DNA of 64,000 nt from Escherichia coli (GCF_003790525.1 NZ_CP033635.1), one strand, 5' to 3'; shown: positions 10,348-10,977, numbered from the stretch's first letter. Notes: a model not told the origin generated them from the sequence alone. Numbers and translations are program-made.

Positions 10348-10385
10348 AGCGAAAAATTCTGATTAAGGTCATTGGCTTAATGGTC

Positions 10386-10429
10386 ATAATGACCACTCCT
10401 ACAGAACAGGTAAAGCCCACCAGCCTGAT
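10386..10429. repeat. Left copy of a ~45-bp imperfect direct repeat (core ACAGGTAAAGCCCACCAGCCTGAT)
   Basis: Matches 10797-10841, with 29 consecutive identical nt in the core. Confidence 0.8.
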
Positions 10430-10796
10430 AATTGCGCTGGCTGGCAAAGTGCAAAATTGCACGATGGCCTAACCCATTGATTATTTCGAAAACCTGCAAT
10501 GCAGGAAATCGGGGAAGTAAGCCTAAGCTATTGATTCTTTCGGAAACCTCAATTTGAGGAAGTCGGCGCGGTAACTCGCTGATATTCCCGATAACGCAAA
10601 ATTGCGTTGGCTGGTTGGCGAGTTGCAGATCTGCAACTCGACCATGAAACTACGGAAACTACCCGTAGTTTGGGTAGTAAGAGTAACACCCAGATTTTGG
10701 GGCTTACTCGTGATACCCAAATTTGGAGTATCGGTGGCAACCATAACGACTTTCGTTACGGTTGATGCTTTTACCCCATTGGGGGAAAGGTATTAC
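10430..10796. other. Hairpin-dense non-coding module (candidate structured RNA or ssDNA element)
   Basis: About 10 distinct stem-loops. Examples are 10449-10462, 10493-10505, 10547-10559, 10593-10608, 10619-10640 (a 22-nt perfect palindrome), 10647-10671, 10677-10707, 10712-10732, 10739-10763 and 10768-10789. Confidence 0.6.
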
Positions 10797-10841
10797 GATA
10801 ATCATAACACCTACCGAACAGGTAAAGCCCACCAGCCTGAT
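10797..10841. repeat. Right copy of the ~45-bp direct repeat
   Basis: See 10386-10429. Confidence 0.8.
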
Positions 10842-10977
10842 TGACATTTAACCGGAAAAAAAGCCAGGTAGCCCCGTTATGTGGATCCCCATATCGACAG
10901 CAACGCCCCCTTAAAATTACCCGCCTTTATATTTCTTGTGCCTATTTGTTCCACGTTGTTTCATACAGTGCGCCGAA

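Follow-up and report, generated by a model that had tools for sequence, protein, structure and literature searches.

A mosaic of dyad-symmetric modules in an Escherichia coli phage satellite includes a segment shared with lambdoid roi genes

Why would a phage satellite fill the space between its last gene and its attachment site with several hundred base pairs of closely packed, non-coding hairpins? The question arises from a 64,000-nucleotide stretch of Escherichia coli DNA (GCF_003790525.1, NZ_CP033635.1), hereafter the window, which carries an island of ~11 kb that, judged by its gene content, is a cos-type Gram-negative phage-inducible chromosomal island (PICI). All positions given below are those of the window. 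The hairpins lie within positions 10375–10850 (476 nt), a stretch that we call the array. Our analysis indicates that the array is a mosaic of palindromic elements that may bind proteins. The best-defined of these elements form a family of ~50-bp units, each of which joins a consensus site for integration host factor (IHF) to a dyad; one of them, unit B, closely matches one small segment of the roi genes of lambdoid phages.

A family of ~50-bp units within the hairpin-dense stretch

Folding of 10375–10850 yielded minimum free energies with z-scores of −8.9 for RNA of the + strand, −8.1 for RNA of the − strand, and −7.7 for DNA, and none of the dinucleotide-preserving shuffles used for comparison folded as well. 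The density of dyads, which is extraordinary, is therefore not a matter of chance and bears out an earlier note on this satellite. Every hairpin listed in that note is present at its stated coordinates, as is the terminator-like hairpin ATGACGTGGCCAACGTCAT followed by a T-run on the + strand at 10323–10347. The note had also dismissed the open reading frames (ORFs) of the stretch as artefacts, and the six-frame fragments of the array that were searched indeed lack a Pfam match. The Rfam search that it had proposed (cmscan of window positions 1–16000, both strands, E ≤ 1) produced no match; a tRNA/tmRNA scan and Tandem Repeats Finder (TRF) returned nothing in the hairpin stretch, and no promoter-like site was found in or adjoining the array. 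The REP consensus had no match in the 64 kb with up to three mismatches, and the ERIC consensus core likewise had none with up to three mismatches. With respect to Rfam, REP, ERIC, tRNAs and tandem repeats, the array thus matches nothing known, as had been claimed; the claim fails for unit B, which is 94% identical to an internal segment of lambdoid roi genes.

Read from the left, the array opens with the dyad TGGTCAT-A-ATGACCA (10381–10395), variants of which (TGGTCAAAATGACCA and GGTCATGATGACC) occur in other arrays. Positions 10430–10462 hold the 3′ half of a truncated unit (AATTGCGCTGGCTGG, the same as 10600–10614) and the dyad GTGCAA-AA-TTGCAC, an arrangement that occurs intact in the related locus L001. 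Three units on the + strand follow. Unit A (10467–10520) has its IHF consensus at 10470–10482 (− strand, AATCAATGGGTTA) and its dyad, CCTGCA-A-TGCAGG, at 10493–10505; unit B (10521–10574) has the corresponding elements at 10524–10536 and 10547–10559 (CCTCAA-T-TTGAGG). The third unit (10567–10614) belongs to subfamily 1b, which supplies the first unit after the ORF stop codon in most relatives; its IHF consensus, with G at the R position, lies at 10572–10584 (TATCAGCGAGTTA) and its dyad, AACGCAA-AA-TTGCGTT, at 10593–10608. A perfect 22-bp palindrome, CGAGTTGCAGATCTGCAACTCG (10619–10640), begins a conserved right-hand block, which continues from 10641 to 10795 as back-to-back hairpins: AAACTACGG/CCGTAGTTT, GGGTAGTAAG.../...CTTAC..TACCC, GATAC../..GTATC, AACCATAACGA/TCGTTACGGTT and CCCC/GGGG.

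The stems had been described as unrelated in sequence, which does not hold for 10467–10520, 10521–10574 and 10567–10614. Units A and B are 76% identical, the third is a more distant copy, and the hairpins at 10493, 10547 and 10593 are thus members of one family. From the arrays of related satellites we gathered 49 distinct units. On the + strand each reads YAA-N4-YTGATW (on the opposite strand, the IHF consensus WATCAR-N4-TTR) and then a dyad with arms of 5–8 bp around 1–4 central bases. Arms and centres differ in length among the 49 units, yet the dyad centre always lies close to 19.9 bp (± 0.6 bp) from the IHF core. The density of IHF consensus sites is 2.7 per kb in arrays and 0.23 per kb elsewhere in the window, and their orientation in arrays is biased 96:6. 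Three of the 20 sites in the window fall inside 115 bp of the array (WATCAR-N4-TTR at 10470, 10524 and 10572), each with a dyad on both sides. A covariance model of the unit, R1, scored unit A at 64.8 bits and unit B at 64.2 bits, was significant in the window only at 10467–10571, where it found these two units, and recovered 53 copies in 56 satellite loci, all in a single orientation relative to the upstream operon.

Covariation of the stems among related islands was a check that the earlier note had called for. When 14 array units and five phage alleles were aligned without gaps, 95.6% of dyad cells paired and five of the six dyad pairs changed on both sides; none of 500 shuffles and no slid register approached these values. 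It follows that the dyad is maintained at the nucleotide level: its symmetry is kept by compensatory changes in phage genes and satellite arrays alike. Variation among units has no detectable codon periodicity and is thus not inherited coding variation. The units also tolerate an A-to-G change (ATCAG), which fits WATCAR and is found in no roi allele.

Relationship of the units to roi, antirepressor and KilA-N genes

Positions 10519–10566, in unit B, are 93.8% identical over 48 nt to the antisense of roi nucleotides 122–170. Phages with this match include HK620, H-19B, HK75, CUS-3 and many Stx phages, in which the genes are annotated as 'DNA-binding protein Roi', 'anti-repressor' or 'KilA'. The + strand of the window is antisense to roi, and the matched segment encodes the wing region of Phage_pRha, the N-terminal winged-helix domain. 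The covariance model R1 detects the roi genes of HK620 and JLK-2012 at 69.5 bits. Units from other arrays are 87–89% identical to roi of JLK-2012, Lahn2 and phi330, and 90% identical to the antirepressor gene of Salmonella SSU5. A separate module resembles KilA-N genes such as HK620 hkbK (90–92%), in the sense orientation. Arrays hold, in tandem, one small part of roi derived from different alleles; translation of the − strand of the array yields a chain of fragments from different roi alleles, interrupted by frame breaks and without a pRha match.

To what extent the phage genes themselves carry the dyad was assessed in 12 roi/ant alleles sampled by spread tblastn (64–100% protein identity); this sample was used instead of a viral-contig scan with a Roi alignment, in which every allele returned shared 98% or more of its sequence with HK620 roi. 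Ten of the 12 alleles have a perfect dyad (stem of at least 5 bp) at one codon position (nt ~128–145), and eight have an IHF consensus ~10 nt downstream of it. The dyads are allele-specific in sequence, with stems of up to 12 bp: CCTCAAATTGAGG in HK620, CCTCCAATGGAGG in D6, CTGCATTGCAG in HK97, TCCCCCAATGGGGA in Stx2_12E129, CTTTTCCACCAATGGTGGAAAAG in SSU5 and CAATTTCCACAGACTGTGGAAATTG in Stx1_132418. The peptides encoded at the dyad differ accordingly (PQIEV, PPMEV, PALQ, PPMG, PPMVE, PQTVE). Five dyad classes are common to phage alleles and arrays, namely CCTCAAATTGAGG, TCCTCAAATTGAGGA, CTGCATTGCAG, TCCCCCAATGGGG(G)A and TTCCACCAATGGTGGAA. The dyad of unit A belongs to the HK97-roi class and is better conserved than its surroundings, since the flanks of unit A are only ~60–70% identical to any sampled allele. 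In the Stx1a phage Stx1_8100 (L173), a stop codon at roi nt ~133 lies inside the dyad (CCTTAAATTGAGG, P*IED) and breaks the palindrome; the same roi region in Stx1a phages matched array units at 89%.

Roi of phage HK022 reportedly binds within its own gene, close to an IHF site, and its binding is said to be stabilised by IHF. A connection between HK022 Roi and IHF appears in the title of Clerget and Boccard (J Bacteriol, 1996), as cited in PMC3430580. The unit defined here is the obvious candidate for this intragenic Roi/IHF site. It shows homology to roi nt ~118–170 (94% for unit B against nt 122–170 of HK620/H-19B-type roi), with a dyad and an adjacent IHF consensus. The array module differs from the phage site in that it is non-coding, with no intact roi frame, is multiplied, occurs in several dyad classes, and resides in a satellite that lacks a roi gene.

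The surrounding island and its relatives

The features that identify the island as a PICI comprise an integrase (188–1438), AlpA (1813–2001), a replication module with a RepA-like AAA_25 helicase (4075–5481), helper-type cos sequences, a partial morphogenesis set and flanking att repeats; related islands are annotated likewise. Genes for SSB and PerC are also present, and the host flank consists of phoQ-phoP-purB. The Clp-protease/capsid fusion at 7608–9524 is one ORF of 638 amino acids that joins a ClpP-like prohead protease domain and a major capsid domain of the HK97 type. Relatives inserted at this site have capsid and decoration genes of the lambda E/D type in its stead, some of them with terS as well.

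A probable replication origin, consisting of GTGAG/AAAGTGAG iterons in both orientations around an AT-rich stretch, lies at 5476–5680, directly 3′ of the helicase gene. Lambda-like cosQ-cosN copies (ACGGGTCC..CACGGGGCGGGAGCGTCGCGG) are found on the + strand at 7011–7092 and 9549–9630 (cos2) and on the − strand at ~9870–9945. The two direct copies are 93% identical over 82 nt, while the inverted copy sits just upstream of the last ORF of the island and makes an inverted repeat with cos2, spaced by ~300 bp. Two cos sites have been reported in the island EcCICFT073 (PMC6739421). Between cos2 and the inverted copy, TATCAATTTGTTGCA (9842–9856) is identical to the IHF site H′ of lambda attP (lambda 27764–27778). 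The attR region (10929–11003) is a 75-nt repeat of 113–187 with 79% identity and forms the true end of the island; its core, GGTGTAGTTAATGGTGTAGTTAATT (10979–11003), is identical at both ends and contains two GGTGTAGTTAAT repeats. The array had been placed at attR, with an end near 10845. It stops ~135 bp inside attR and spans 135–600 bp from the core. At the int end, the portion of att to the left of the core is similar to the right arm of this same island and may be what is left of an earlier island at the site. The probable origin, the lambda-like cos copies and the att repeat thus all lie elsewhere in the island, and the array is neither ori nor cos nor, it seems, att.

The ORF that precedes the array (9954–10253, + strand) encodes 99 amino acids here and ~93 in relatives. 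Its only PHROG matches are phrog_1561 (3e-49) and phrog_7271, both of unknown function; we found no Pfam, PDB or fold relative, and it is not Rpp. An AlphaFold2 model consists of three helices (pLDDT 68). The ORF was absent from the phage collection searched. It has 943 homologues (E ≤ 0.001), and the named proteins among the best 120 of these 943 all come from Escherichia or Shigella; among 185,579 species representatives it occurs in a single Shigella flexneri genome. All related islands examined, whether located at roxA/phoQ, at tqsA or elsewhere, have this ORF ahead of the array, as do ~50 IMG/VR loci; the array follows the stop codon in L001, L003–L005 and the IMG/VR loci. Beyond the ORF, content varies by island, with a mosaic of ~120 distinct hairpin sequences that recur in changing order. 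Some related islands lack ~50-bp units, and in some, cargo genes occupy the slot. Arrays are common to islands that differ in their replication and capsid modules. Judged by these comparisons, arrays are a modular, recombination-shuffled feature of the family, of which we found no description in the PICI literature searched.

The right-hand block (10615–10795) is present in 675 of 5,426 complete E. coli genomes and carries no annotation in any of the 12 genome matches listed. Its identity across islands is 88–99%, mostly 90–99%, compared with 77–90% for the protein of the adjacent ORF. The whole 601-bp query matched 1,494 genomes, some of which may represent prophage roi genes and not arrays. 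Four to five GTGACA repeats at ~10–11-bp spacing adjoin other arrays (L003, 6380–6430; L011, first 100 nt past the ORF), and the window has only a degenerate trace of them, GGACATCGAGACAAAGACGG, at 10260–10280. In L019, the sequence 419–732 nt past the small-ORF stop codon is a flank 100% identical to the lambda portal gene B (lambda 3658–3971); this satellite belongs with the helper-embedded PICIs that PMC10111431 describes.

The array had also been regarded as framed by direct repeats. Two such repeats of 44 nt are present (10386–10429 and 10798–10841, 89% identical), each a copy of an array-terminal module with a Chi octamer on the − strand (CCACCAGC; 10417–10424 and 10829–10836). They do not constitute a true bracket. 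The left copy and the terminator at 10323–10347 together make up the module with which the L003 array ends beside att; here this module is joined to the middle of another array, with the 3′ half of a unit at 10430–10444, so the apparent bracket is a product of recombination. Chi is abundant in the island, with 10 copies of GCTGGTGG in 11 kb compared with 10 in the remaining 53 kb of the window. Across 54 related downstream regions we counted 95 Chi sites in 55 kb (1.7 per kb), and the sequences around them are of a dozen or more distinct kinds. Within the island (1093–10836), the six Chi sites up to 6323 are all on the + strand and the four from 6657 on are all on the − strand; once the island is circular, the two sets are both directed at the region of att and the array. 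In the arrays of L047, L011 and L080, paired and oppositely oriented Chi sites (GCTGGTGGGCATGATG ... CATCCACCAGC) flank a palindrome of the type GATATGGGGA(T/C)CCCCATATC, for example in L011 at 423–486 nt past the ORF stop codon. RecBCD leaving a break at such a palindrome would encounter an active Chi on either side. The window retains only a half-site of this palindrome, at 10883–10896.

A proposed protein-binding DNA platform and its alternatives

The conserved features of the array are better explained by protein-binding DNA than by RNA. This preference rests on the IHF consensus, the two-turn spacing, the tolerance of ATCAG and the lack of codon periodicity, as well as on the Chi sites, the missing promoter-like site, the symmetric mismatches and the very short dyad centres. 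Mismatches in the stems number nine G.T against seven A.C, with no strand bias, and this strand test is uninformative. The earlier proposal of a novel structured RNA or single-stranded DNA element gained nothing from these results, given the lack of a promoter-like site, the terminator that precedes the array and the want of strand bias. Our preferred reading, to which we assign a probability of about 0.4, is that the array is a double-stranded DNA platform that would bind IHF and Roi/Ant-family proteins of the helper phage.

According to this model, the array would be an accessory cis-acting region of a cos-type PICI, assembled from shuffled ~50-bp modules, the best-defined of which presents an IHF-binding consensus and then a dyad-symmetric site of 11–25 bp two helical turns away. 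During helper growth, host IHF and the helper's early Roi/Ant-family protein would assemble on modules of the matching dyad class; because each array holds several dyad classes, it could serve several helper lineages. The Chi sites, by analogy with the red gam Chi biology of lambda, may shield linear or rolling-circle PICI DNA from RecBCD, promote recombination, and favour the multimers required for cos packaging. Protein binding could have either of two consequences. The bound proteins might be titrated, an effect that PICI replication would amplify, or helper growth might be reported to the PICI, whose alpA gene is known to respond to a helper cue (PMC11773190). It is tempting to go further and to view the array as a hypervariable, recombination-shuffled library of operator mimics copied from lambdoid roi, ant and kilA genes, each with its IHF site, that would act as a 'helper recognition array' by capturing early regulators, to sense the helper or, as the island amplifies, to starve it of them. 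We consider this bolder version doubtful. By the same analysis, roi-family genes in general would conceal within their coding sequence an allele-specific dyad and IHF element acting in cis.

The satellite P4 offers a precedent for such logic: its late promoter has sites for P2 Cox, in the form of identical repeated Cox boxes, through which a DNA-binding protein of the helper acts on satellite DNA and the helper is sensed. The array departs from this example in its varied dyad classes, its IHF sites and its lack of an evident promoter, and here binding is deduced. BIME-1/RIB-RIP elements likewise alternate palindromic units with IHF consensus sites, are non-coding, lie 3′ of genes and form strain-variable mosaics. 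The array lacks the REP consensus, however, and its units are homologous to a phage coding segment; REP/BIME elements are dispersed over the chromosome, whereas array units are confined to the satellite within the 64-kb window.

Several observations weigh against a dsDNA platform for Roi-like proteins. All 53 strong unit matches lie in one orientation relative to the upstream operon, a constraint for which a DNA site has no need and which an antisense RNA would require. Only some modules have a phage counterpart: the right-hand block (10615–10795) has no phage match even at E ≤ 1, and neither do subfamilies 1b–1d. Near-identical recognition helices are associated with different dyads (HK620, RHDNVKRTIE; SSU5, RHDSVKRTIE), so that recognition of structure fits at least as well as operator specificity. 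Any benefit of the array to the satellite is conjecture.

A rival reading, which we consider unlikely, is that the array functions as RNA. In most islands it would then lie in the 3′ untranslated region of the late-operon mRNA, and the segments of its + strand that are antisense to helper roi/ant mRNAs would pair with these and silence them, or its hairpins would stabilise or terminate the upstream mRNA. Satellites do use small RNAs, among them the CI RNA of P4 and an sRNA encoded by PLE. In most relatives the array begins at the ORF stop codon without an intervening terminator; on the operon strand, the strong unit matches all run antisense to roi; L041 and L080 have a canonical terminator as their first hairpin past the ORF; and the folding z-scores are extreme. 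In the window, however, a terminator precedes the array, and Rfam matches and G.U strand asymmetry are both missing. The module derived from KilA-N is in the sense orientation, and most loops are of 1–3 nt, which suits neither kissing interactions nor stable RNA hairpins. The constant 20-bp distance from the IHF consensus and the tolerance of ATCAG, which breaks complementarity to roi, also point to DNA.

It is improbable, in our estimation, that the array is an architectural region for the PICI's own cycle, in which IHF bends and bound proteins assist excision and integration, packaging or replication. Its location would suit such a role: the array adjoins att, lies near cos2 and, once the island is circular, sits just upstream of attP and int and 0.8–1.3 kb downstream of a cos copy. 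The clustered, oriented IHF consensus sites would suit it as well, and the switch in Chi orientation between 6323 and 6657 is compatible with forks or ends that start near att and the array. Against this, the probable ori iterons are 3′ of the helicase gene, the cosQ-cosN copies are at least 750 bp away, and the arm-like repeats are at 10979–11003, outside the array. Array content differs widely between otherwise similar islands, some of which have no units, which makes an essential site unlikely; moreover, islands whose replication and capsid modules differ have arrays in common.

In lambda cosB, the IHF site I1 lies between R sites bound by winged-helix TerS (PMC9026076). Like the proposed platform, it pairs an IHF bend with winged-helix protein sites at a set distance, and the packaging context is of the lambda type; in contrast to the array elements, R sites are not dyads, and the nearest cosN-like sequence is 750 bp or more from the array. 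A lambda-type cosB is rejected, as it requires a position within ~200 bp downstream of cosN and the array starts at 10381, with the cos copies farther off; the PICI cos literature searched makes no mention of the array region. The ori iterons in lambda gene O are also 18-bp dyad-symmetric protein sites inside a coding sequence, and TCCCTCAAATTGGGGGA resembles TCCTCAAATTGAGGA. Mimicry of O sites was rejected since there is no significant lambda match, the ori iterons of HK620 are direct repeats and the array holds different dyads instead of several copies of one; the array is not the replication origin either, as the pattern of one repeated iteron around an AT-rich stretch sits at 5476–5680 and the dyads of the array are of several kinds. 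HK620 CI/Cro operators share ATACC/GGTAT half-sites with the dyad at 10712–10732, with a spacing of 5 versus 9 bp, and operator mimicry of this type was also rejected.

Other named systems fared no better. A CRISPR array is contradicted by TRF, which found nothing, and by the only adjacent repeat pair, which is 76% identical with abutting copies. For a type III antitoxin of the ToxI kind, there is no tandem array, and the adjoining ORF has no Pfam match or toxin annotation (PADLOC models were not searched); for a retron RNA, there is no reverse transcriptase domain among the island proteins scanned.

Finally, the slot between the last gene and att might be an exchange hot spot, and the modules functionless scars of Chi-stimulated or illegitimate recombination with phages and satellites. 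The modular, shuffled content, direct repeats explicable by recombination between arrays, a Chi density of 1.7 per kb, phage gene fragments in both orientations, and the cargo genes that hold the slot in some islands are all as expected of such debris. We nevertheless think there is little chance that debris accounts for the array, because decay would destroy the dyads, the IHF consensus and their spacing, all of which are kept (95.6% dyad pairing) while flanks have diverged down to ~60–70% identity. Simple decay of a single gene cannot account for tandem copies of one small roi segment that stem from different alleles, and the right-hand block is 88–99% (mostly 90–99%) identical where the neighbouring ORF protein is only 77–90% identical.

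With regard to how Gram-negative PICIs detect their helpers, the array would, if the dsDNA platform reading is correct, give a concrete candidate for direct contact between a helper protein and satellite DNA; alternatively, it may represent a new, decoy-type form of interference. The array is present in at least 12% of complete E. coli genomes. On the phage side, roi genes hold a conserved nucleotide-level dyad that is invisible to gene annotation and is kept through compensatory substitutions that change amino acids. Should the array turn out to be no more than a product of recombination, it is still the record of a hot spot of exchange, rich in Chi, that shapes how satellites evolve.

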